Both the position numbers and the translations under genes were made by a program. This document shows positions 45,983 through 61,572 of a stretch of DNA of 64,000 nucleotides, piece by piece. Numbering within the stretch: position 1 is the stretch's first letter; every line of letters begins with the position of its first letter. The notes beneath the pieces are model-generated. The model was not told where the DNA came from, made no database searches, and saw only the letters and a program-made list of their open reading frames with translations. The DNA is from Bacteroidales bacterium (GTDB lineage: Bacteria; Bacteroidota; Bacteroidia; Bacteroidales; VadinHA17): assembly GCA_033791445.1 (NCBI GenBank), contig JASJGS010000044.1, forward strand, positions 833 through 64,832, written 5' to 3'.

Positions 45983-47317
45983 ATGGCAACACCGGTAATC
46001 ATGCCCAGGCAGGGACAATCTGTTGAAACCTGTATTATTACACAATGGATGAAGGAAAAGGGTGATAAAGTTGAATCAGGAGATTTACTTTTCTCTTATG
46101 AGACGGATAAAGCAGCTTTTGATGAAGAATCTGCCATTACGGGCATCCTCTTAGATGTTTTCTATAATGATGGGGATGAGGTACCTGTACTTACCAATGT
46201 TTGTGTGATAGGAGAGGAAGGTGAAAGTGTGGATGAATTTAAACCTTCTGACATAGTTGATGATACAAAAAATGAATCCCCGCAAAAGATTGAATTATCA
46301 GAAAAGGAATTGGGCGAAAAAGAAGAGCCTCCCACAGGAAAAATAGGAATGCTTGATACGGAAAAACTGAAAATCTCTCCCCGAGCACGAAAAAAAGCAG
46401 CTGAACTGGGATTGATTGTACAGGGTATTAAAGGGTCTGGGCCGGGCGGAAGAGTTATTGAGTCAGACGTTATTTTAGAAGCTGGCAAGCAACCATTTAT
46501 TACACCTCTCGCTCGCAAAAAAATGGAAAAAGACCAGCTGGTTTATAACAGACAGCAATTCAGCAAAGGTGAACGGGTTACTTCCAGGGATTTGTTAGGT
46601 GGAAAAACCGAACCAGGCAATGAGTTTGAAATTGTTCCATTATCAAGGATGAGGAAGCTAATTGCAGAGAATATGTTCCAATCTTTAAGAAACTCGGCTC
46701 AACTAACTCACCACCTCAGTGCGGATGCCCGAAGGATTTTAAACCTGAGGACTTTTGTTAAGCCAAAGGCTGAAGAAGGTGTTTTACCGAATATTACCTT
46801 GAATGATATGGTCTGTTATGCTGTCGTTCGGGCACTGAAGAAACATCCCAACCTAAACGCCCACTTCAAGGAGGATCATACTGTACAGTACAGGCCAGTT
46901 CATCTTGGATTTGCAGTCGATACGGAACGTGGATTAATGGTTCCGACATTAACAAATGCGGATACATTTACCCTGCCCGATTTTGCAAAAGAAATGAAAA
47001 GCCTGGCAGAGAAATGTCAGTCAGGAAATATTGATCCGGACCTTCTAATGCCTGATGCAGCCACTTTTACCGTTTCAAACCTGGGAGCTTTTGGTATTGA
47101 GATGTTTACTCCTGTACTAAACTTGCCTCAGGTAGGAATTTTAGGTGTGAATACCATTCAATTGAAGCCTGCTGATATTGGTGGAGGTGTAATAGGATTT
47201 GTTCCCTTTATTGGACTTTCACTTACTTACGATCACCGTGCAGTAGATGGGGCCCCGGCCTCTCTATTCCTGAGAACAATAAAAGAAGAAATAGAAAGCT
47301 TTGAAGAAACTGTTTGA
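45983..47317 (+). CDS. 2-oxoacid dehydrogenase E2 component (dihydrolipoamide acyltransferase)
   Basis: 444 aa. Lipoyl domain with ETDKA, peripheral-subunit-binding segment (ISPRARKKAAELG) and catalytic DHRAVDG. Confidence 0.9.
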   Translation: MATPVIMPRQGQSVETCIITQWMKEKGDKVESGDLLFSYETDKAAFDEESAITGILLDVFYNDGDEVPVLTNVCVIGEEGESVDEFKPSDIVDDTKNESPQKIELSEKELGEKEEPPTGKIGMLDTEKLKISPRARKKAAELGLIVQGIKGSGPGGRVIESDVILEAGKQPFITPLARKKMEKDQLVYNRQQFSKGERVTSRDLLGGKTEPGNEFEIVPLSRMRKLIAENMFQSLRNSAQLTHHLSADARRILNLRTFVKPKAEEGVLPNITLNDMVCYAVVRALKKHPNLNAHFKEDHTVQYRPVHLGFAVDTERGLMVPTLTNADTFTLPDFAKEMKSLAEKCQSGNIDPDLLMPDAATFTVSNLGAFGIEMFTPVLNLPQVGILGVNTIQLKPADIGGGVIGFVPFIGLSLTYDHRAVDGAPASLFLRTIKEEIESFEETV

Positions 47318-47339: not shown

Positions 47340-49808
47340 ATGCCTAAGAACTTATTTATTGACCCAAAAACAGTCCGGAAACCAGGAAAAATTACTTTTC
47401 AACCCATTCCGGTAAATGAATATCAGAAAACCATTGAAGAGGAGAAAGCCAACTTCTCAAATGATGATTTTCTGAAAATTTACAAGGATATGATGATTAT
47501 CCGTGAGTTTGAGCTTATGCTCAATAAGATTAAAACTACCAATGAATATAACGGGATAAGTTATAATCATCCAGGTCCTGCTCACCTGTCGATAGGGCAG
47601 GAAGCTTCCGCAGTTGGGATGGCCTATGACCTTTCTGTAGAGGATATAATTTTCGGGTCTCACCGTAGCCACGGGGAAATTTTAGCAAAAGGTCTATCTG
47701 CTATTTCCCGGCTTGAGGAAAAGCAGCTCAATTCCATAATGACCAGCTACCTTGGTGGAAAAACACTATCAGTAGTGGAGAAAAATTTCCAAGGCAAAGA
47801 GAATGAATTGGCCATTGATTTCTTATTATATGGGACCCTGGCTGAAATTTTTGCAAGGGAAACAGGTTTTAATAAAGGTCTGGGTGGTTCCATGCATGCA
47901 TTTTTTCCTCCTTTCGGAATTTATCCAAACAATGCTATTGTAGGTGGTTCAGGGGATATTGCTGTGGGTGCTGCCCTTTATAAGAAGGTAAATAAGAAGC
48001 AGGGCATTGTTGTAGCCAATATTGGAGATGCATCAATGGGATGCGGCCCTGTTTGGGAAGGAATGATGTTTTCTGCAATGGACCAGTATAAAACCCTTTG
48101 GGAAGGTGATTATAAGGGTGGCCTTCCGGTTCTGTTCAATTTTATGAACAACCAGTATGGCATGGGAGGTCAGACCAAAGGTGAAACTATGGGATATGAT
48201 ATCCTGGCCAGGGTAGGTGCAGGCGTAAACCCTGAACAAATGCATGCCGAAAGAGTAGATGGCTATAACCCACTAGCGGTAATTGATGCTTTCCGGCGTA
48301 AAAAGAAGTTGCTAATTGAAGGAAAAGGTCCCGTATTGCTTGATACACTTACCTATCGTTATAGTGGCCATTCCCCTTCCGATGCATCTTCTTACAGATC
48401 AAAAGAAGAAGTGGATGCCTGGATGAAAGAAGATTCCCTGCTATATTTTGAAACAGAACTGACAAATGCAGGCATTGCCAGCAAAGCTCAGGTTGAAGAG
48501 ATTAAGGAATATGTGAAAGATAAGATTACTCATATTACCCGACTGGCAACCAACGATGACTTATCACCACGAATGAACATGGTGAAAAATCCTGATGCCA
48601 TTGGGGAAATGATGTTTTCAAATGAGTCAATATCAGCCATGGAAAACAGGCCTCCTGAAGTAAATCATCCAATGAATGAAAACCCCAGGGTGAAACAAAT
48701 TGCCAGGAAAGAGAGGTTCGGCCTTGACAAAGAAGGAAAACCTTTTTCAAAAGTAAAGACCTATCAATTACGTGATGGAATTTTTGAAGCAGTGATCGAT
48801 CGATTTTATAAAGACCCAACACTTGTTGCCTATGGGGAAGAAAACAGAGAATGGGGTGGTGCTTTCGCTGTTTACCGGGGCCTAACAGAGGCATTGCCTT
48901 TCCAGCGGCTTTTTAATTCACCGATTTCTGAAGGAGCTATTGTTGGAACGGCTATAGGGTATGCAATGTGTGGTGGGAGAGTGATCCCGGAAATTATGTA
49001 TTGTGATTTTCTGGGTAGATCGGGAGATGAAGTATTCAACCAATTACCCAAATGGCAGGCCATGAGTGGAAATATTTTAAAGATGCCACTTGTATTACGA
49101 GTCTCTGTAGGATCAAAGTATGGAGCTCAGCATTCCCAGGACTGGTCCTCACTGGTAGCCCATATACCCGGGTTGAAGGTGGTTTTTCCGGCTACACCCT
49201 ATGATGCGAAAGGATTGATGAATTCTGCCCTTCAGGGTACCGACCCGGTTGTTTTCTTTGAAAGTCAGCGTATTTACGATATTGGTGAACTATTTCATAC
49301 AGAAGGTGTTCCTGAAGAATACTATGAAATTCCTATTGGTGAACCAGATATCAAACGGGAGGGCAAAGATTTAACTATTTTGAGCATTGGTGCCACCCTG
49401 TATAAGGCCATGGAAGCAGCGAATATACTATCAGAAAAATATGGAATGGAAGCTGAAGTTATTGATGCCAGGAGCCTGGTGCCATTTAATTATGAACCAG
49501 TTTTAAAGTCCTTGCAAAAAACAGGTAAAATACTTCTAACAAGTGATGCATCCGCCAGAGGATCTTTTATAAAAGATATGGCATCAACTATTACCGAACT
49601 TGCATTTGACGATTTGGATGCTCCACCAGTGGTAGTTGGTTCACGTAATTGGATTGTACCGGCTCATGAGTTAGAGGATTATTTTTTCCCGCAGGTTGAT
49701 TGGATCCTTGATGCCATTCATAAAAAGATAATGCCATTGAAAGCATATGTAGTTAAAAACAACAGCTCAATTGATTCTGATTTGCAAAGGTTTCAGGAAG
49801 GTATATAG
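47340..49808 (+). CDS. Fused E1 alpha-beta component of a thiamine-diphosphate-dependent 2-oxoacid dehydrogenase
   Basis: 822 aa. The alpha part carries the TPP motif IGDASMG...[10 protein letters not shown]. The beta part has ...[32 protein letters not shown] and the C-terminal transketolase-like domain. Confidence 0.85.
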
Positions 49809-49863: not shown

Positions 49864-50475
49864 ATGGAAACGGCAAATATCAATCAACAGGAACTAGTAC
49901 CCAATGAAAATGGCATTGATCCGAATCTTACACAGTCTAAATACGCCAAAGGGGGAGGAAAAGAAACTTTATACAGGGTAACTATCCGAAGCCAAATAAG
50001 GCTTATTGGGATTATGGATAGCAAGGCAAACTTGATAATAAGTATGAATACGCTGTTAATTACTGGTACACTTGGATTATTAACAGGTTCCCTGTTTTTT
50101 ATTGATGCGCCAAGAGAAATGAAGCTGGTAGATTATGTTCCTTTTCTAGCCCTGCTCTTTTTTGCTATAATTGCGATGACTTATGCAATTCTTTCCACCA
50201 GGACTGATTTAAGTATAAAGAAATTCAGAGCAAAAACCAGTCCCATGCAATTTACCTTATCACATCAGAAAAAAACTCCGGTAGATGAGTATCTAAGTTA
50301 TATGGAAAAGGTGATTTCTTCGAATGAACTGATTTATGAGAACCTAAACCTTGATTTGTATTTTCTGAGTAAGGTAGTGTCCAGGAAGTCTCATTATCTC
50401 AATATTTCCTATACTATGTTCCTTATTGGACTAATTCTCTCTGTGGTTCTATTCCTTGTTATTACTGTGTTTTGA
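49864..50475 (+). CDS. DUF5706 / Pycsar-effector-like three-TM membrane protein (orphan)
   Basis: 203 aa. The segment TLYRVTIRSQIRLIGIMDSKANLIISMNTLLI is followed by three hydrophobic helices and matches my recollection of the DUF5706 pattern (..L...AD.KAN.....N..). No cyclase lies next to it. Confidence 0.45.
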   Translation: METANINQQELVPNENGIDPNLTQSKYAKGGGKETLYRVTIRSQIRLIGIMDSKANLIISMNTLLITGTLGLLTGSLFFIDAPREMKLVDYVPFLALLFFAIIAMTYAILSTRTDLSIKKFRAKTSPMQFTLSHQKKTPVDEYLSYMEKVISSNELIYENLNLDLYFLSKVVSRKSHYLNISYTMFLIGLILSVVLFLVITVF

Positions 50476-50674: not shown

Positions 50675-51847
50675 ATGACGGACCTACTTAAAATTGGTGT
50701 TAATACACATATCCATACGCCCTATTCTTTTAGTGCATTTTCTTCTATGGATCAAATCTTTGATATAGCTTATAAGGAGAATATTAAAGTGATAGGCATA
50801 AGTGACTTCTATACGGATGATGGCTATGATGAATTTAATAGTCTGGCCAAAAGACATAGGGTTTACCCTATCTTCTGCATGGAGTATATTGGCCTTTTAA
50901 AGGAGAAACAGGAACAAAATATCAGGGTAAATGATCCCAACAACCCGGGAAGGACATACCTCTGTGGTAAAGCATTTGGCTTTCCCTTTGCTTTAAATAA
51001 AAAATATTCAGATAAGCTCTCAGAATTAACTCGGGAAAGCCAGGATCAGGCAAGGGCTATGGTATTGAAAGCGAATAACTATTTTGCTTCCCTTGGACTT
51101 TCTATTCATCTTGATTTTGAGGAGATTAAGCAAAAATATGCCCGGAACATGGTCCGGGAGAGACATATTGCAAGAGCAATTAGAATTGCTTCATGCCAGG
51201 AATCCAAAACTGAGGAAGAGTGTATAAATATGCTAGGTCTTATCCTTGAAACAGGTATCGATGAAGCTATATTGAAGCAGGATGCTTTTCTGGAAAATCT
51301 AATTAGATCAAAATTATTAAAAAAGGGTGGGTTCGCATTTGTTGAAGAAACAGAAAGTGCATTTTTGCCAGTTTCTGAGCTAGTTGAACTAATTATCGAT
51401 GGAAAAGGAATTCCTTGTTACCCGGTTTTGCTTGATGATCAAAAGGGGAATTTTACAGAATTTGAAAAGGATTGGGAGCAGCTTTGTTCTGAGCTTGTTG
51501 GTCTTGGAATATTTGCTATTGAACTAATTCCAGTTCGAAACGATCCTAATATTCTTAAAAAGTTCGTTAAGTTTTTTAAAAAAAAGAATTTCATTATTAC
51601 CTTTGGTACAGAGCATAATACGCCAGATTTAATACCTCTTACAGTCCTCAGTAAGGATGGGCAACCACTGGATGACGAGTTGAGAGAAATTGGTCTTGAT
51701 GGAGCTTGTGTTTTAGCAGCGCATCAACATTTAGTGACTGAAGGCAAGGAAGGGTATATAGATTCAAATGGTGAAGCAAAATTTAGCCAGATAAAAGATT
51801 TTGTTTCATTAGGAAAAGATGTTTTGTTAAACTTCTTAACATATTGA
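50675..51847 (+). CDS. PHP-domain (polymerase/histidinol-phosphatase-like) metal-dependent phosphoesterase
   Basis: 390 aa. N-terminal GVNTHIHTPYS (HxH) and a distal FGTEHNTP block. A stop lies 6 nt before the next gene. Confidence 0.6.
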   Translation: MTDLLKIGVNTHIHTPYSFSAFSSMDQIFDIAYKENIKVIGISDFYTDDGYDEFNSLAKRHRVYPIFCMEYIGLLKEKQEQNIRVNDPNNPGRTYLCGKAFGFPFALNKKYSDKLSELTRESQDQARAMVLKANNYFASLGLSIHLDFEEIKQKYARNMVRERHIARAIRIASCQESKTEEECINMLGLILETGIDEAILKQDAFLENLIRSKLLKKGGFAFVEETESAFLPVSELVELIIDGKGIPCYPVLLDDQKGNFTEFEKDWEQLCSELVGLGIFAIELIPVRNDPNILKKFVKFFKKKNFIITFGTEHNTPDLIPLTVLSKDGQPLDDELREIGLDGACVLAAHQHLVTEGKEGYIDSNGEAKFSQIKDFVSLGKDVLLNFLTY

Positions 51848-51853
51848 TAAATA

Positions 51854-53044
51854 ATGCAAATAGATACGGAAATCCTTTATTTTGAATTACTTCCGGCCAT
51901 CCGGGGAATCTTTTTAAGAAGTTCTTTTGTTACCGTAAATGTAACATTGAATGAATCTTCAAATACAATAGCTAAAACGAAAAGTGCATTCAATATCTGG
52001 AAGCAAAAACGATCAGATTTAAATTCATTGTACCTTGATAATGATTTAAAGATCAGTGATATATTGAAAGCCGTTAAGTCCTTTGAAAATGGTCTGAGTA
52101 CGGAGCAAAAAAGACTTCCTTCTTTTATTTTCATTCAGGATACGGGTCTCATTAATGTTTGGCCAAGCACCCAAATTGCTGGTGATGATTTGGAGGATGA
52201 GCTTGTATATTATAATCCCAAGCACCTTCACCAGAAGGTTGTAGTGATCACAGGTGGAGCACAGGGATTTGGTGAGGGTATTGCTGTTAGGGCTTTCAAA
52301 GAAGGCGCACATGTTGTGGTAGCCGATTTGAATGAAAAGCTTGGATCCAATCTGGTTAGAAAATGGAAAGGCGAGAGTGATACTGGGAATAGAATGATGT
52401 ATTTTTACGCAGATGTAACCAATGAGGAATCAGTCAGGAATTTAATAATGAAAATAGTTGATAATTTTGGAGGCATAGATATATTGATTAGCAATGCTGG
52501 AGTGTTAAGGGCTGGTGGTCTGGATGAATTAAAAACAAGTGACTTCGAATTTGTGAATGATGTAAACTACAAAGGTTTTTTCTTGTGTAGCAAATATGCA
52601 TCCCGTGTAATGAAAATACAAAATAAGTTCAACCCATCTGGATACTGCGATATAATTCAGATAAACTCAAAATCAGGCCTAGAGGGAAGTCAGAAGAACT
52701 TTGCCTATGCCGGAAGTAAATTTGGAAGTATTGGGTTGGTTCAATCCTTTGCCCTTGAGCTGATTGAGAACCGGATAAAAGTAAATGCTATTTGTCCGGG
52801 GAACTATTTTGATGGGCCTCTCTGGTCCGATCCGGAAAATGGTTTATTTGTTCAGTATCTGCGTGCTGGCAAAGTTAAAGGAGCTAAAAATATTGCTGAT
52901 GTAAAAAGATTTTATGAAAGTAAGGTGCCCATGAACAGGGGTGTTACTGTTGATGATGTGATGCTGGCCATTTTATATGCATCAGACCAGAAATATGAAA
53001 CTGGTCAGGCAATTCCGGTAACTGGTGGACAGGTGATGAGATAA
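51854..53044 (+). CDS. Sorbitol-6-phosphate 2-dehydrogenase (SrlD/SorD)-like SDR with an N-terminal extension of about 125 aa
   Basis: The C-terminal approx. 265 aa parallel E. coli SrlD as I recall it (IIQINSKSG..GS..N..Y...KFG..GL.QS.ALEL, YESKVPMNRG, TGQAIPVTGGQVM). The Rossmann motif VVVITGGAQGFG begins at about residue 128. No alternative start codon lies before it. Confidence 0.8.
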   Translation: MQIDTEILYFELLPAIRGIFLRSSFVTVNVTLNESSNTIAKTKSAFNIWKQKRSDLNSLYLDNDLKISDILKAVKSFENGLSTEQKRLPSFIFIQDTGLINVWPSTQIAGDDLEDELVYYNPKHLHQKVVVITGGAQGFGEGIAVRAFKEGAHVVVADLNEKLGSNLVRKWKGESDTGNRMMYFYADVTNEESVRNLIMKIVDNFGGIDILISNAGVLRAGGLDELKTSDFEFVNDVNYKGFFLCSKYASRVMKIQNKFNPSGYCDIIQINSKSGLEGSQKNFAYAGSKFGSIGLVQSFALELIENRIKVNAICPGNYFDGPLWSDPENGLFVQYLRAGKVKGAKNIADVKRFYESKVPMNRGVTVDDVMLAILYASDQKYETGQAIPVTGGQVMR

Positions 53045-53117
53045 TTCTGGAAGATTGTAGGAATTGTTTAAATTTGTTTAGATAAATTCCAAATTATTAT
53101 TCTTATACCTTGATAAA

Positions 53118-54230
53118 ATGGAAAAATTAGAAAAATTGTTCCTTACAACAATTAAGAATAAATGGACGCTTATTGGCTTTTTGTTATTTTTTTCCTTTTT
53201 CCCCACTACAATTGCGCAGGAACCTGTAAATGCTGGTCAGCATGAGATAAATTCTAAGGTCGAAATATACAATGACCAGGATTGGCTATTGTTTGAAGAA
53301 GTTGAACCACTGAGATTATCCCTGGCCTTTGATAGAAAATTATTTCGTAAAAACACAATAAAAGAAGAGTACCAGCCTGCAGTTCTATCTGTACATTTAC
53401 CGGATACGGTTATTGATAGGGATATTCGAATTCGTGCCAGAGGAATCACACGGAAAACAATTTGTACTTTTCCTCCTATTAAACTAAACCTGAAAGAGGC
53501 TGATTTGGGTGATACACAGCTGAAGCACCAATCTACCTTGAAAATGGTCACCCATTGTAAAAATTCCAATATGTACCAGAAGTACATATTTAAAGAATAT
53601 TTGGTATATAAGCTTTATAATCTTCTAACTGACTATAGTTTAAAGGTCAGACTTGTACAAATCGATTACATTGATACAGGTCCTAAACAGAAAGTAATAA
53701 CCAAATATGGATTCCTGATTGAGCACATCGATGCACTGGCCAGGCGAATGGATTGCGAAGAGGTCGAAAATGAATATCTCCCTCAAAAAAATATGAACAA
53801 AGAAATTATGCCTCTGCTTTGTGTTTTTCAGTATATGATGGGGAATACCGACTGGAGCCTGGCAGGTTTACATAATATTAAAGTTATACAATCAAAAAAC
53901 CCTACTGATTTTGAACCTTACCCTATACCTTATGATTTTGATTATGCAGGTTTTGTGGATACAGAATACGCAATTCCGGCTGAGGGACTGGGACTTGATT
54001 CTGTTAAGGATAGATATTACAGGTGTATTTGCTTTGAAGAATCCTCTATATTTGAATCTGTTGATTTAATAGCTTCTAAAAAGGATGCCATGTTCAAATT
54101 AATTGAAGATTTTGAATACCTGACTAAAAATGAAAAAGCTTTTCTTACCAAATATTTGAATGACTATTTTGAACCCATGGAAAACGATAAGGTTATTAGA
54201 AGAGATTTAATTGATCCTTGTATTAAATAA
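53118..54230 (+). CDS. Secreted protein of unknown function, tandem paralog A (tentative CotH-like pattern)
   Basis: 370 aa. Signal peptide ends in ..TTIAQ-E. Shares blocks with the next ORF: VTHCKNS, KEYLVYKLYN, KVRLVQIDYIDTG, KYGFLIEH, GNTDWSLAGLHNIKV, PIPYDFDYAG, TEYAIPAE. Confidence 0.6.
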   Translation: MEKLEKLFLTTIKNKWTLIGFLLFFSFFPTTIAQEPVNAGQHEINSKVEIYNDQDWLLFEEVEPLRLSLAFDRKLFRKNTIKEEYQPAVLSVHLPDTVIDRDIRIRARGITRKTICTFPPIKLNLKEADLGDTQLKHQSTLKMVTHCKNSNMYQKYIFKEYLVYKLYNLLTDYSLKVRLVQIDYIDTGPKQKVITKYGFLIEHIDALARRMDCEEVENEYLPQKNMNKEIMPLLCVFQYMMGNTDWSLAGLHNIKVIQSKNPTDFEPYPIPYDFDYAGFVDTEYAIPAEGLGLDSVKDRYYRCICFEESSIFESVDLIASKKDAMFKLIEDFEYLTKNEKAFLTKYLNDYFEPMENDKVIRRDLIDPCIK

Positions 54231-54252
54231 GGAGTAATATGAGTTTATCATA

Positions 54253-55359
54253 ATGTTAAATAAAATATATATAAGTAAGCCTATCATAGCACTTTTGTTC
54301 TGGTTAGTTTTCCTTTTACCCTCCGGTGTATTAAATGCACAGGGTTTAGATGATGATAAAGACCTTTTGCTTGATACCACATCTGTAGTAAGTATTGATT
54401 CAGAAGTGGATTGGGACTTATTTGGAAATCAGGATCTACTTAGATTATCCCTTTCCTTCGATATGAAGGAGTATAAAAAATATGCTACTGAACCCAAATA
54501 CCAGGAAGCCGTTCTAACTATTCATGGGATGGATGGATCTATTGATAAAAAGGTAAGAATAAAACCCCGGGGAGAATTTCGGAGGAAGTATTGTTCATTT
54601 CCACCCTTGAAAGTAAATGTTAAGAAAACTGATTTTGATAATGACTATTTAGATAAACAAACGACATTTAAATTTGTAACACATTGTAAAAATTCAAGTC
54701 TTTTTGAATCATATTTATTGAAGGAGTTTCTTGTTTATAAGCTCTTTAATCAATTATCAGATATGAGTTTTAAAGTCCGGCTTATTCAAATGGAATATAT
54801 TGATACGGGTAAAAAGAAAAAGGTTTATTCGAAGTATGGTTTTATTATTGAACATGTAAATTCAGTCGCTTCAAGGAACAATGCTTTTGTTTTGAAGAAC
54901 GAGAAGCTCGGTCAGGCTATTATGGATAAAGATCATATGGCTTTGGTTGCATTATTTGAATATATGGTTGGCAATCCTGATTGGTCCATTACCGGCTTAC
55001 ACAATATGAAAGTCTTGAAAATAAATGATATAAACCTCCCTAATCCATTGCCTGTACCCTATGATTTTGACTATTCAGGGATTATTAATACGGAATATGC
55101 CATACCATCAGAAGATTTGGGGATTGAGTCAATAACAGAGAGATTGTATAGAGGAATCTGCCTTCCTGAAGAGGCTTTAAGAAATGGCAAAGAAGTCTTA
55201 CTTAAGAATAAAGATGAACTATTTAGAATTATTGAAGAATTTTCATATTTAAATAAGAGAGAACGCAAAGAGCTAAGCAGTTATCTGAATACTTCTTTTG
55301 ATATTATTGAATCTGAATCCTCTTTTAATCGTGAAATTATTAATAATTGTATAGATTGA
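54253..55359 (+). CDS. Secreted protein of unknown function, tandem paralog B (tentative CotH-like pattern)
   Basis: 368 aa. Signal peptide ends in ..LNAQ-G. Colinear with paralog A (VTHCKNS, KEFLVYKLFN, KVRLIQMEYIDTG, KYGFIIEH, GNPDWSITGLHNMKV, PVPYDFDYSG, TEYAIPSE). Confidence 0.6.
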   Translation: MLNKIYISKPIIALLFWLVFLLPSGVLNAQGLDDDKDLLLDTTSVVSIDSEVDWDLFGNQDLLRLSLSFDMKEYKKYATEPKYQEAVLTIHGMDGSIDKKVRIKPRGEFRRKYCSFPPLKVNVKKTDFDNDYLDKQTTFKFVTHCKNSSLFESYLLKEFLVYKLFNQLSDMSFKVRLIQMEYIDTGKKKKVYSKYGFIIEHVNSVASRNNAFVLKNEKLGQAIMDKDHMALVALFEYMVGNPDWSITGLHNMKVLKINDINLPNPLPVPYDFDYSGIINTEYAIPSEDLGIESITERLYRGICLPEEALRNGKEVLLKNKDELFRIIEEFSYLNKRERKELSSYLNTSFDIIESESSFNREIINNCID

Positions 55360-55373
55360 AATAATTGATATAA

Positions 55374-56636
55374 ATGAAATCAAAAGCTGTTAGAATATAC
55401 GGGAAGAGAGATCTTCGATTAGAAGAATTTGATCTTCCACCAATGAAAGAAGATGAGATCCTTGCGAGGGTAGTTTCGGATAGTATTTGCATGTCAACAC
55501 ACAAGGCTGCATTGCAGGGAATAGAGCACAAGAGGATTCCTAATGATGTGCATAAGAACCCCACCATTGTTGGCCATGAATTTAGTGGTGAAATTATCGC
55601 TGTAGGCGAAAAATGGGCTGATCAGTTCCAGTCCGGGCAAAAGTTCTCCATCCAACCTGCTTTAAACTATAAAGGCAGCCTCGATGCCCCGGGCTACTCG
55701 TATAGATGGATAGGGGGCAATGCCACACATATAATTATTCCAAATGAAGTCATGGAAATGAATTGCTTACTGGCCTATGATGGACCTGGGTTTTATCCGG
55801 CCTCATTATCGGAGCCTCTTTCCTGTGTGATTGGAGCATTTCATGCAAATTACCATATGAAACCTGGGAAATATAACCATCATATGGATATACAGGAGAA
55901 GGGGAATATGGCAATTCTGGCAGGAGCCGGACCTATGGGACTTGCGGCCATCAATTATGCCCTGTACAGGGAAAGAAAACCTTCGCTTCTGGTGGTAACC
56001 GATATCGATGACCAGAGATTGAATAAAGCCGAGTTGTTATACTCTAAAGAACTTGCGTCAAAAATGGGGGTAGAGCTTGTTTACATGAATACAGGTAAAT
56101 CCAGAGTGGCTGATAAAGACCTTTTGAATCTAGCGGGTGGAGAGGGATTTAACGATGTATTTGTTTTTGCCCCGGTACCAGAGGTGATTGAACTCGGTGA
56201 TAAAATATTGGCCAGGGATGGTTGTCTAAATTTCTTTGCAGGACCTTCCAATCCGGATTTTTCAGCTAAATTCAATTTCTATAATTTGCATTATAATTCA
56301 ACGCATGTGGTTGGAACCAGTGGTGGCAATAACGATGATATGAATGAGGCCCTTGAATTAATGGCAAAGGGCCTGGATCCTTCAGGTCTAATTACTCATA
56401 TTGGAGGACTGAATGCTGTAATTGATACTACCTTGAATTTGCCTGGAATTCCAGGAGGTAAAAAGCTAATTTATACCAATATAAACCTGGAACTAACTGC
56501 CATTGATGATTTTGAGCAATTGGGCGAAAATAACCCCCTCTTTAAATCTCTTGCAGAAATTACTTCCAGGCACAATGGCTTATGGTCTGTTGAGGCGGAG
56601 GCATTTCTATTAAAGAATGTGTCAAAACTTTCCTAG
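55374..56636 (+). CDS. Zn-dependent medium-chain dehydrogenase, L-sorbose-1-phosphate reductase (SorE)-like
   Basis: 420 aa. MKSKAVRIYGKRDLRLEEF...DSICMSTHKAALQG...GHEFSGEI (Zn-ADH signature region). Length and N-terminus match proteins usually annotated as sorbose-1-phosphate reductase. Confidence 0.7.
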   Translation: MKSKAVRIYGKRDLRLEEFDLPPMKEDEILARVVSDSICMSTHKAALQGIEHKRIPNDVHKNPTIVGHEFSGEIIAVGEKWADQFQSGQKFSIQPALNYKGSLDAPGYSYRWIGGNATHIIIPNEVMEMNCLLAYDGPGFYPASLSEPLSCVIGAFHANYHMKPGKYNHHMDIQEKGNMAILAGAGPMGLAAINYALYRERKPSLLVVTDIDDQRLNKAELLYSKELASKMGVELVYMNTGKSRVADKDLLNLAGGEGFNDVFVFAPVPEVIELGDKILARDGCLNFFAGPSNPDFSAKFNFYNLHYNSTHVVGTSGGNNDDMNEALELMAKGLDPSGLITHIGGLNAVIDTTLNLPGIPGGKKLIYTNINLELTAIDDFEQLGENNPLFKSLAEITSRHNGLWSVEAEAFLLKNVSKLS

Positions 56637-57554
56637 CTGCTCATTTTTGAGATTTTGAGCGAAAGATTCTGAGATGTAGTTTTCATCTGACATGCATACA
56701 TTGGATGCAAATTGAATGCCGGTTTGAACTAAAAAGTCCCAATCGGTATTTACTAGGGCTATAAGATCATCTCTTATGATTTTCTTTTTGTTCAGACTAT
56801 AAATTAGTCCTGCATTAAAATTGTCTCCAGCTCCAATGGTTGAAACGGGGGTAATCTCAGGTGTAATGAAATGTTTTTGATAATACTTTGTTTGCAATAA
56901 TACTCCCTGCTTGCCCATGGTGTAGATCAAACACGGGTTAACTGTTTTTATTTTGCTAAATACTTGTATTGGATCCTCCGTATTAAATATATAGTTAAAG
57001 TCTTCATCAGATCCTCTAACAATATCAGCAAGTAGAATATTTTCCTCTATAATAGGTATTAAAGTGGAAATCTCATCTAAATGAACCTCCCTGAAATTTG
57101 GATCATAAACAATTAATGCCCCTGCACTCCTGGCCTGTGATATTATCTTCTTTACTTTTTCCCTGAGCAGCGGATTTATTGCAAACCACGATCCCATCAA
57201 AAAGATATCATCTCCAGTAAATTCAGGGAGTGGTATATTAAATCTTTCCGCAGGAGGATCAGAAAAGAATTTATACCGGGCCTCATTCCTATCATTCAAA
57301 ATAGCATTTGAAATGGTCGTTTTGCCATCCTTATGACGGTATACATTTTCAAGGCTAACATTATTCTTTTGAAAAAAAATCTCCAGTTTTGCCCCATCTT
57401 CATCGAGTCCGAATTCAGTTAAAATATGGACGGGAAGGTTTAGGCGTCCTAATGAAACGGCAGTATTGATTGCAGATCCACCAGCAATGGCTTTAATTTG
57501 TTTTCCCTCTTTGAAAATTAATTCTAATAGGCATTCCCCAAGTGTATAAATCAT
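56622..57554 (-). CDS. PfkB-family carbohydrate kinase (fructokinase-like)
   Basis: 310 aa. AGGSAINTAV near the N-terminus and GAGDNFNAGLIY (PfkB signature 2). Its 3' end overlaps the convergent dehydrogenase gene by 15 nt. Confidence 0.85.
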   Translation of the reverse strand: MIYTLGECLLELIFKEGKQIKAIAGGSAINTAVSLGRLNLPVHILTEFGLDEDGAKLEIFFQKNNVSLENVYRHKDGKTTISNAILNDRNEARYKFFSDPPAERFNIPLPEFTGDDIFLMGSWFAINPLLREKVKKIISQARSAGALIVYDPNFREVHLDEISTLIPIIEENILLADIVRGSDEDFNYIFNTEDPIQVFSKIKTVNPCLIYTMGKQGVLLQTKYYQKHFITPEITPVSTIGAGDNFNAGLIYSLNKKKIIRDDLIALVNTDWDFLVQTGIQFASNVCMSDENYISESFAQNLKNEQLGKF

Positions 57555-60092: not shown

Positions 60093-60953
60093 ATGAATGT
60101 TTCAGATTTTTTAGTAAAAGAGGAAGAAAAAGTAGATTTAAAGAATTACCACACCTGTATTCCCAATAATGGTGTAACCAAAAAAGAAGCCAAAAGAGAC
60201 CTGGAGGATAATCTCGAGAGAATGGCTGAGCTTCAGGATATTCTCTATGCTTATAACAAATATGGTCTTCTAATAATTTTCCAGGCTATGGATGCAGCCG
60301 GGAAAGATAGTGCCATCAAGCATGTTATGACAGGCGTAAATCCGCAGGGAACGCAAGTTTTTAGCTTTAAGCAACCCTCAAAAAATGAACTTGATCATGA
60401 CTATCTATGGAGGACCTCCAAATCACTGCCTGAAAGGGGTCGTATTGGAATATTTAACAGGTCCTATTATGAAGAGGTATTGGTAGTTAAGGTTCATAAT
60501 CTTATTAAATATCAAAATTTACCGGAAGAGTTTACAAAAGGGAATATATGGGAGAGAAGATATCGTCAGATTCGGGATTTTGAAAGGTATGCCCATGAAA
60601 ATGGAATTATTACGATAAAATTTTTCCTCCATCTTTCAAAGGAAGAACAAAAGCAAAGGTTTCTGAAAAGGTTGGAGACACCATCCAAAAATTGGAAGTT
60701 TTCTGCTTCTGATCTGAAGGAAAGAGAACATTGGGATGAATACCAGAAATGTTACCAGGAAGCCATATCTGAAACAAGCACAGTAGATTCTCCCTGGTAT
60801 ATTATCCCGGCGGATGAAAAGCCCTATGCCAGGTACCTGATTTCAGAAGCAATTATCAATACACTTGAAAGTTTTGATATGAAATACCCCAGCTTGAGCG
60901 AAGATCAAATTAAAAATCTGGAGTTATATAAAAAGCAATTGTCCGAAGAATAA
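60093..60953 (+). CDS. ppk2: Polyphosphate kinase 2 family protein (single PPK2 domain)
   Basis: 286 aa. FQAMDAAGKDSAIKHV (Walker A-like) and RSYYEEVLVVKVH. Confidence 0.9.
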   Translation: MNVSDFLVKEEEKVDLKNYHTCIPNNGVTKKEAKRDLEDNLERMAELQDILYAYNKYGLLIIFQAMDAAGKDSAIKHVMTGVNPQGTQVFSFKQPSKNELDHDYLWRTSKSLPERGRIGIFNRSYYEEVLVVKVHNLIKYQNLPEEFTKGNIWERRYRQIRDFERYAHENGIITIKFFLHLSKEEQKQRFLKRLETPSKNWKFSASDLKEREHWDEYQKCYQEAISETSTVDSPWYIIPADEKPYARYLISEAIINTLESFDMKYPSLSEDQIKNLELYKKQLSEE

Positions 60954-60960
60954 GGGAGAT

Positions 60961-61572
60961 CTATTTATTTTTTTGTGCAGCTTGTCTTGATTTTGATCCA
61001 AGATATCCACCATGGTGCCTTAAAGCATAATCCTGGGCTGAAAAATCAATCTTTTTCATCATACAAACTACCAATGCATCACCAATTACTGTCATAACAG
61101 TAGTTGAGGTGGTAGGAGATAGGCCAAGTGGACAAACTTCTTTTGGATTACCAGTTTGTATCAACACATCAGCCAGCCTGGCGAGAGGACTATCTTCCTG
61201 ACTGCTTATGACAATAATTGGCAAGTTTGGATTCAGGTTTTTTGCCAATTCTACAAGTTCTATTATTTCCCTCGTTTTTCCGGAATTCGAAATCAGAAGA
61301 AATACATCATTCCTCTGGATAACTCCTAAATCCCCATGTTGTGCATCGCTGGGATGTAAAAATATGGAAGGGGTTCCTGTTGAACTAAATGTAGTAGCAA
61401 TATTGATGGCAATCTGACCCGCTTTTCCCATCCCGCTGGTAATAACCTTCCCATGCTGATTATGAACTTTTTCATATATCAGATCCAATGCCTCATCAAA
61501 ATCGGTGGTTACTGGGATATTTAAGATTGCACTGGCCTCATCTCTGAGTATCTGTTTAATAGTATCTGACAT
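60961..61572 (-). CDS. SIS-domain sugar-phosphate isomerase-like protein (KpsF/GutQ N-terminal type, no CBS pair)
   Basis: 203 aa. GKVITSGMGKAGQIA and LLISNSGKTRE blocks are typical of SIS domains. Confidence 0.8.
   Translation of the reverse strand: MSDTIKQILRDEASAILNIPVTTDFDEALDLIYEKVHNQHGKVITSGMGKAGQIAINIATTFSSTGTPSIFLHPSDAQHGDLGVIQRNDVFLLISNSGKTREIIELVELAKNLNPNLPIIVISSQEDSPLARLADVLIQTGNPKEVCPLGLSPTTSTTVMTVIGDALVVCMMKKIDFSAQDYALRHHGGYLGSKSRQAAQKNK

Follow-up and report, generated by a model that had tools for sequence, protein, structure and literature searches.

A stretch of 64,000 nucleotides (nt) from a Bacteroidales bacterium (contig JASJGS010000044.1, positions 833 to 64,832; referred to as the window) contains two adjacent genes, designated A and B here, which are predicted to encode exported proteins with a kinase fold resembling that of the spore coat kinase CotH. 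A and B are separated from each other by 22 nt and are located between the genes of a short-chain dehydrogenase/reductase (SDR) and a Zn-dependent dehydrogenase, with gaps of 73 and 14 nt, respectively (Table 1). An earlier description of this DNA, which was made from the letters alone and is referred to as the sequence-only reading, had presented them as paralogs of approximately 370 amino acids (aa) with these gaps and seven shared sequence blocks; the coordinates of the open reading frames (ORFs) and a BLASTP comparison agree with this, and all seven blocks were found in both translations. The two proteins are 46% identical in an ungapped BLASTP alignment of 324 aa (E 1e-113), a similarity far beyond chance. 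B has the same sequence as the NCBI entry 'hypothetical protein QNK30_04335, Bacteroidales bacterium', which stems from a metagenome-assembled genome. The ortholog of A, L007_6755 (L-numbers denote loci containing relatives of A and B, called the family in the following), is 69% identical to A, which exceeds the identity of 44% between A and B in that comparison; the pair is an old tandem duplication, which arose before the L007 lineage branched off.

Table 1. Genes and sequence features of the window; positions are those of the window, and residue numbers are those of the respective protein.
Feature	Position	Strand	Basis or remark
PHP-domain phosphoesterase-like protein	50675..51847	+	Pfam PHP E 2e-7; linked to family genes in L001, L007 and L009-L011
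SDR, sorbitol-6-phosphate-dehydrogenase-like	51854..53044	+	best NCBIfam match 229 bits, below the 307-bit cut-off
TAAATTTG, matching the -7 promoter motif of Bacteroidota, between SDR and A (73-nt gap)	53069..53076	+	motif scan
Paralog A, 370 aa	53118..54230	+	ORF; predicted exported CotH-like kinase-fold protein
A: predicted signal peptide, residues 1-33, cleavage TTIA↓QEP (Q34)	53118..53216	+	sequence pattern
A: candidate beta3-Lys/alphaC-Glu pair, K142 (53541-53543) to E160 (53595-53597)	53541..53597	+	conservation 88/89 and 89/89
A: putative catalytic-loop motif D245...H252-N253 (GNTDWSLAGLHN)	53850..53876	+	hhalign to CotH D..HN; conservation
A: Y272-D273-F274-D275, putative metal-binding Asp and adenine-stacking aromatic residue	53931..53942	+	aligned to CotH P-W-D-Y-D
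Paralog B, 368 aa	54253..55359	+	ORF; predicted exported CotH-like kinase-fold protein
B: predicted signal peptide, residues 1-29, cleavage VLNA↓QGL (Q30)	54253..54339	+	sequence pattern; model
B: candidate Lys-Glu pair, K140 (54670-54672) to E158 (54724-54726)	54670..54726	+	conservation; model
B: putative catalytic loop D243...H250-N251	54979..55005	+	hhalign; conservation
B: Y270-D271-F272-D273, putative counterpart of the A motif	55060..55071	+	hhalign; conservation
Zn-dependent medium-chain dehydrogenase (ADH), 420 aa	55374..56636	+	orthologs with 62-99% identity in 80 metagenome loci
PfkB-family sugar kinase, convergent	56622..57554	-	Pfam PfkB E 1e-27; fructokinase-like 115 bits, below cut-off

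AlphaFold2 models of both proteins were built from an alignment of 50 sequences and compared with the structures of the PDB using Foldseek. The top match of model B (predicted local distance difference test score 84.7, predicted template modeling score 0.80) was the CotH kinase of Bacillus cereus (5jd9; E 4e-7, probability 1.0, template modeling (TM) score 0.51), and the top PDB matches of model A (predicted local distance difference test score 85.0) were the CotH structures 5jda and 5jd9 (E 1e-8, probability 1.0, TM approximately 0.51). All remaining good matches have a kinase fold and are at least 1000-fold weaker; they comprise PI4K, PI3K, VPS34, HipA/HipT, PKR, Rio1 and MavQ, with the lipid kinases PI4K, PI3K, VPS34 and MavQ being the next structural neighbors after CotH. 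The sequence-only reading had suggested a CotH-like kinase from the order of conserved motifs. Since both models, independently of each other, match CotH first, this guess was right at the level of the fold, and the models support the view that the fold of A and B is closest to the CotH-like kinase fold (5JD9/5JDA); membership of the Pfam CotH family, however, was not borne out, as described below. The same reading had also been reminded of HipA-type kinase loops, a resemblance that extends to the generic kinase fold only. A HipA-type kinase was rejected as the nearest relative, because HipA and HipT match model A far below CotH (E approximately 2.5e-3, TM 0.35-0.46) and are absent from the top 50 matches of model B; they are cytoplasmic toxins with antitoxins and have no gene context in common with the family.

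The motif correspondences to CotH were aligned by hhalign as the sequence-only reading had proposed. In the C-terminal half, GN-x-D243-WS...H250-N251 is paired with QN-x-D-GF-V-H-N of CotH and P-Y270-D271-F-D273 with P-W-D-Y-D, both within one alignment of low statistical confidence (E 0.16; residue numbers refer to B unless stated otherwise), and the N-terminal halves are colinear, with RG being paired with YRG and GFIIE with YLxLES (E 0.077). Conservation of the residues was counted across 89 family sequences from independent loci: E158, E200, H250, N251, D271 and D273 are found in all of them, position 270 is aromatic throughout, and K140 and D243 are each conserved in 88. The lysine of the HN.K element, which had been listed among the conserved residues, is present in only 57. 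In model B, K140 lies in strand 138-143 and E158 in helix 149-166, and in model A, the corresponding K142 and E160 lie in strand 140-144 and helix 151-168, a layout that would be that of the canonical Lys-Glu pair. In CotH, which retains the equivalents of the residues D166, N171 and D184 of PKA and has no DFG motif, Tyr142 and Trp245 stack on either side of the adenine (PMC12189002), and the D228Q and D251A mutants of B. subtilis CotH are catalytically dead (PMC7821199). In the low-confidence alignment with CotH, D243, N251 and D271 map to the equivalents of D166, N171 and D184, and Y270 maps to Trp245. Conservation of D243, N251, D271, K140 and E158 in 88 or 89 of the 89 sequences argues for selection on an active site, and we infer that A and B are catalytically active and that these residues have the corresponding roles.

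Every catalytic residue is kept in both paralogs of the window as well as in both copies of the other tandem pairs; such pairs recur in the window and L007 and in L037 and L072. The pairs of the latter two loci (L037 6457-10714, L072 5329-9565) represent a second, independent old tandem duplication, and the genes are arranged in the order DUF2797, rhomboid protease, family gene, family gene and DUF4956. The sole degenerate member among the 89 sequences, L060_4334 (L060 4334-5401), carries the exchanges R106G, K140N and D243N and is likely a natural pseudokinase; the joint loss of R106, K140 and D243 would be expected if the three residues form one functional unit.

The N-termini of A and B consist of a basic n-region and a hydrophobic core of around 15 to 17 residues, which is followed by an A↓Q junction, in agreement with the cleavable signal peptides ending in AQ that the sequence-only reading had assigned. 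In 72 of the 89 relatives, the N-terminus likewise contains a hydrophobic stretch that ends in [ASGC]Q, and glutamine at position +1 is known as the 'Q-rule' of signal peptidase I substrates in Bacteroidetes (PMC5837995, PMC10653852). In both models, the hydrophobic helix is followed by a disordered linker (helix 9-28 and linker 30-52 in model B). C114 and C145 are invariant, while 80 of the sequences contain C303 together with C366 and 8 contain neither of the two; the invariant and the co-varying cysteine pair fit two disulfides and an oxidizing compartment. Neither a lipoprotein cysteine nor the C-terminal domain of the type IX secretion system is present in the proteins, which makes the periplasm the likeliest location. 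Judged from these features, A and B would be Sec-exported, periplasmic and disulfide-stabilized proteins.

A word-indexed search yielded 435 relatives, all of which are unnamed and belong to the Bacteroidota, and an exhaustive profile search (E up to 1e-3) yielded 4,341 cluster representatives at 50% identity. Family genes are found in at least 584 species-representative genomes of Bacteroidales, Cytophagales, Chitinophagales, Flavobacteriales and Saprospiraceae, all within the Bacteroidota; cultured hosts include Lutimonas halocynthiae, Carboxylicivirga marina and Chitinophaga species. In a neighbor-joining tree, the genomic context tracks phylogeny. No description of the family turned up in the literature that was searched. 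The analysis thus assigns a fold, a probable active site and a set of partners to a very large family of 'hypothetical proteins', which includes members from gut and marine Bacteroidota.

Gene neighborhoods were counted over 82 non-redundant loci. The commonest neighbor is DUF4956 (PF16316, E 1e-36 to 1e-44), which is found in 30 of the 82 loci, usually 1-21 nt downstream of the family gene and on the same strand. In L035, L044 and L045, an operon is formed by a VTC polyphosphate polymerase (PF09359, E 6e-27 to 5e-30), which is cytoplasmic and lacks a signal peptide, DUF4956 and the family gene; with only these 3 of 82 loci, VTC was discarded as a general partner. In streptococci, clostridia and bifidobacteria, a cotH module encodes a secreted CotH-like protein, a VTC-like polymerase and a four-transmembrane protein with an ACT-like domain, and this cotH–VTC–DUF4956(–DUF4832) accessory module adjoins pel operons (PMC7112168; bioRxiv 10.1101/2024.04.20.589940). 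The family resembles this module in that its members are predicted to be exported, have the catalytic residues and are partnered by DUF4956, with the three-gene set being complete in the three loci mentioned above. However, the proteins of the Firmicute module are recognizable CotH proteins (22% identical to Bacillus CotH) with an FN3 domain, whereas the family domain stands alone; furthermore, VTC is usually absent from the family loci, no linkage to pel was found, and in the sub-clade of the window, the adjacency to DUF4956 has been lost altogether. In the VTC–DUF4956–CotH gene module, the position of CotH appears to be occupied by the family, and the partners common to both provide evidence, separate from the fold match, for a relationship with CotH. 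They also unify two sets of uncharacterized systems across phyla.

Other recurrent neighbors are type I phosphodiesterases/nucleotide pyrophosphatases (NPP), metallophosphoesterases, alkaline phosphatases, HAD and PHP proteins and transketolase, that is, exported and cytoplasmic phosphoesterases and sugar-phosphate enzymes. In a Chitinophagaceae clade (L050, L076, L078, L083 and L085), the gene of a secreted NPP is located 23-72 nt upstream of the family gene, and the family proteins of this clade lack the C303-C366 pair. In at least seven loci, for instance L017, L021, L023, L025, L026 and L027, the family gene and DUF4956 are followed by the gene of an outer-membrane-barrel-like protein of approximately 500 aa (located around +600 to +3100 nt from the family gene; its match to FadL/Toluene_X is weak, with E 5e-5, and falls short of the cut-off), which hints at a three-part envelope-spanning system. 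The window contains the gene of a small multi-pass membrane protein of the PycTM family (PF18967, 'Pycsar effector', E 1e-12) at 49864-50475 (+), between the E1 gene described below and the PHP gene, and PycTM genes are found beside family genes in unrelated loci as well (L004 7269-7985, with a gap of 15 nt; L068 717-1952; L082 6434-7675). PycTM may serve as a membrane partner in place of DUF4956; as a general partner it found no support, since it adjoins the family gene in only about 5 of 82 loci and the copy in the window is not detectably related to DUF4956.

Taken together, we favor, with moderate confidence, a role of A and B as CotH-like phosphotransferases which are exported, catalytically competent and directed at an extracytoplasmic acceptor. 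Signal peptidase I would cut the precursors at A↓Q, leaving a mature domain of approximately 335 aa in the periplasm or on the envelope. There, a nucleotide would be bound against the aromatic residue Y270, with a divalent metal being coordinated by N251 and D271, and a phosphoryl group would be moved to a hydroxyl of the extracytoplasmic acceptor, for which D243 would act as catalytic base. Together with the convergent PfkB gene, the tandem pair represents an accessory insertion in an (E1/E2)–PHP–SDR–Zn-dehydrogenase operon.

Among the known systems, CotH, the atypical Ser/Thr kinase of the Bacillus spore coat (PF08757), is the best structural match for both paralogs. The family has in common with it the colinear order of the motifs (RG loop, G.Y.L.E, N.D...HN and P-aromatic-D-x-D), the equivalents of the three PKA residues, an aromatic residue at the position of the adenine-stacking Trp, the lack of a DFG motif and a length of around 360 aa. 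It differs from CotH in a 3-residue insertion between the catalytic aspartate and HN, in its predicted export via the Sec pathway, in the two conserved cysteine pairs and in its restriction to the Bacteroidota. Bacillus CotH works in the cytoplasm of the mother cell, where it acts on CotB and CotG. The eukaryotic Fam20 kinases have been reported to be distant relatives of CotH (PMC7821199, PMC12189002). Fam20C and Fam20B resemble the family in their kinase fold, their location in an extracytoplasmic oxidizing compartment and their stabilization by disulfides; however, they are absent from the top 50 Foldseek matches and do not match the family in Pfam. A sugar acceptor is possible for such enzymes, as seen for Fam20B, and the eukaryotic Fam20 enzymes obtain their ATP from nucleotide transporters of the Golgi. 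We know of no comparable supply by a nucleotide transporter for the periplasm.

Several observations weigh against the proposed function. Foremost among them is a conceptual difficulty: to our knowledge, the periplasm does not contain ATP, and an ATP-dependent kinase would be without an obvious donor there. Similarity to CotH at the level of sequence was likewise elusive. Neither A nor B matches any Pfam family at E-values up to 1, including PF08757, the CotH family named in the sequence-only reading, and HipA_C; scans of both proteins against NCBIfam and PHROG and searches of PDB sequences, with single sequences and with a profile, gave no match either. For PF08757, matches were seen with just 2 of 50 family members, none better than E 0.004, and searches of family and CotH profiles against the sequences of the respective other group were non-significant in both directions, even with filters switched off. 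The hhalign comparisons quoted above are non-significant as well, with E-values of 0.16 for the C-terminal and 0.077 for the N-terminal half, and were made with a CotH profile that was built from the authentic 5jd9 sequence and is narrow (Bacillaceae only) and therefore of low power; in global mode, the two profiles did not align, and the colinear local alignments stay below significance. Homology with CotH is therefore not established by sequence statistics, and by the same measures the family lies outside of the Pfam CotH family. The proteins most likely function in the manner of CotH; as the sequence tests for Pfam CotH failed, however, they are classified as a divergent, unannotated sister family within the group of CotH/Fam20-type kinase folds rather than as members of CotH. 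Furthermore, no counterpart of CotH Tyr142 was found, and positions 209-220, where it would be expected, contain no conserved aromatic residue. The 64-kb window contains neither a DUF4956 nor a VTC gene. Finally, the promoter-like motif TAAATTTG, located 42 nt ahead of the start codon of A, might serve the pair as an independent or internal promoter.

The sequence-only reading had placed A and B in a cytoplasmic sugar-phosphate operon, between an SrlD-like and a SorE-like dehydrogenase. The latter label was not confirmed: the Zn-dependent dehydrogenase has no more than weak matches, the best ones being to sorbitol and xylitol dehydrogenases and to IolM. For the upstream gene, sorbitol-6-phosphate dehydrogenase is indeed the best NCBIfam match, but its score falls short of the cut-off (Table 1). 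The flanking enzymes are only loosely identified; they may plausibly act on phosphorylated substrates, and the label of a sugar-phosphate operon may accordingly apply. The SDR has an N-terminal extension of 125 aa (51854-52228, +), which has no Pfam match and is conserved in orthologs of 397-429 aa. Further upstream, the genes of an E2 acyltransferase (45983-47317, +) and of an 822-aa fused E1 alpha and beta subunit (47340-49808, +) are located, both belonging to a dehydrogenase of the 2-oxoacid or acetoin type, and E1 (and E2) are linked to PHP–SDR–ADH in many metagenome loci; in view of this linkage, the presumed sugar-phosphate operon may belong to a larger pathway. The pair is probably co-transcribed with the (E1/E2)–PHP–SDR–Zn-dehydrogenase operon, in line with the tight junctions in relatives that are given below. 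No terminator-like site was predicted between SDR and ADH, with a terminator scan that performed no better than on shuffled sequence, and the same limitation applies to the sigma-70 promoter scan.

Within the sub-clade, three variants of the arrangement are found: PHP–SDR–family gene(–family gene)–ADH with convergent PfkB (window, L001 and L007), AKR–PHP–family gene with convergent PfkB, followed by a SIS protein or an isochorismatase (L009-L011), and SDR–family gene–ADH(–PfkB) (L019, L056 and L057). In the relatives, the spacing between the family gene and the gene ahead of it is tight and ranges from an overlap of 4 nt, as between the SDR and family genes of L019, to a gap of 29 nt. The reverse test started from the dehydrogenase: among 48 metagenome loci with an orthologous dehydrogenase and enough upstream sequence, a family gene is present in 6, and in the other 42, the SDR and ADH genes are directly adjacent (16-230 nt). 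Constant co-occurrence with the three PHP, SrlD-like and SorE-like genes, which the sequence-only reading had raised as a check, was thus not found. On these numbers, the idea of a family gene belonging to the core of the PHP–SDR–ADH operon was rejected. Since 42 of 48 related operons lack it, the family gene is an accessory insertion that is kept in one sub-clade, and about 89% of the family members are found in other contexts. The placement that had been called functionally incongruous is therefore real, but concerns a single sub-clade. PfkB is present in 5 of 5 loci with a family gene versus 1 of 39 without (Fisher p 5.5e-6, uncorrected for shared ancestry).

It could be argued that the link to the operon is incidental and that the pair is a self-contained insertion with its own promoter and a function unrelated to the flanking dehydrogenases, a possibility which does not touch on the question of the fold and to which we give a substantial chance, somewhat below an even one. 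It would agree with the 42 dehydrogenase loci in which SDR and ADH adjoin without a family gene, with the large majority of the family being located in unrelated contexts and with the position of TAAATTTG in front of A; in addition, exported and cytoplasmic proteins have no obvious substrate in common. However, the linkage persists across a divergence to 32-45% identity and across three architectures (AKR–PHP–family gene–PfkB, SDR–family gene–ADH–PfkB and the complete set), SDR and family gene overlap in L019, the family gene co-occurs with PfkB in the test described above (uncorrected for phylogeny), and, with 63 matches against 76 expected, the window shows no enrichment of the promoter motif, which makes the motif weak evidence. 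Doubts about the location concern the N-terminus: residue -3 of B is a leucine, a suboptimal residue for signal peptidase I, and if the proteins had an uncleaved membrane anchor or were cytoplasmic, the mismatch with the operon would be an artifact. This is improbable, as the A↓Q junction of the Q-rule recurs in 72 of 89 sequences, the invariant and co-varying cysteine pairs fit disulfides and a disordered linker follows the hydrophobic helix in the models; moreover, an anchor with its N-terminus inside would still put the domain outside of the cytoplasm.

With respect to activity, the recurrent tandem pairs (window and L007, L037 and L072) recall the kinase/pseudokinase pairs of Fam20A and Fam20C, and A and B could accordingly be viewed as dead pseudokinases or as simple periplasmic binding or scaffold proteins. 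We consider this highly improbable, since all catalytic residues are kept in both paralogs and in the other tandem copies, and D243, N251, D271, K140 and E158 are lost next to nowhere in the family, L060_4334 being the only degenerate member. A kinase-like fold that is used for a different chemistry, such as the phosphorylation of a glycan, polyol or lipid, polyphosphate-dependent transfer or AMPylation, deserves more weight, although it seems rather unlikely. Kinase folds do serve such purposes: Fam20B, POMK and the PI kinases act on glycan or lipid acceptors, and SelO catalyzes AMPylation. Several findings would fit this idea, namely the lipid kinases that follow CotH in the structural comparison, the sugar/polyol enzymes and PfkB in the context of the sub-clade, the association of the family with VTC, NPP, metallophosphoesterase and alkaline phosphatase, which points to polyphosphate synthesis and secreted phosphoesterases, the missing Tyr142 counterpart and the apparent lack of ATP in the periplasm. 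It is opposed by the D-N-D catalytic triad and the adenine-stacking aromatic residue, which are conserved as in CotH.

For the favored interpretation of A and B as exported CotH-like phosphotransferases, the source of the phosphoryl donor and the target of a kinase-fold enzyme in the periplasm are raised as a testable question. It is tempting to speculate, improbable as it is, that the phosphotransferase is fueled by polyphosphate instead of free ATP via DUF4956, with a sugar or polyol being the acceptor in the sub-clade. Polyphosphate would be produced on the inner side of the membrane, either by VTC in those loci that have it or otherwise by PPK-type enzymes, pass outward through the four-transmembrane DUF4956 protein and be used either directly or via a nucleotide to phosphorylate an acceptor in the envelope or outside of the cell; in the sub-clade, a sugar or polyol akin to the substrates of PfkB, SDR and the dehydrogenase would serve as this acceptor. 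The passage would resemble that of the eukaryotic VTC complex, which couples the synthesis of polyphosphate to its translocation. If this were true, it would be an unrecognized way to power phosphorylation outside of the bacterial cytoplasm. We know of no function for bacterial CotH-type kinases outside of Bacillus spores.

Two further genes of the window lie downstream of the operon. A polyphosphate-dependent nucleotide kinase of the PPK2 family is encoded at 60093-60953 (+), at a distance of 4.7 kb; its score exceeds the PPK2_rel_1 cut-off (ADP-polyphosphate-phosphotransferase-like, 406 bits), which is worth mentioning in light of the polyphosphate theme of the VTC partners. It is followed by the gene of a SIS-only protein of approximately 205 aa (60961-61572, -), which corresponds to the N-terminal domain of KdsD/GutQ without CBS domains and which is also found near the family gene in L010 (10593-11219, -).

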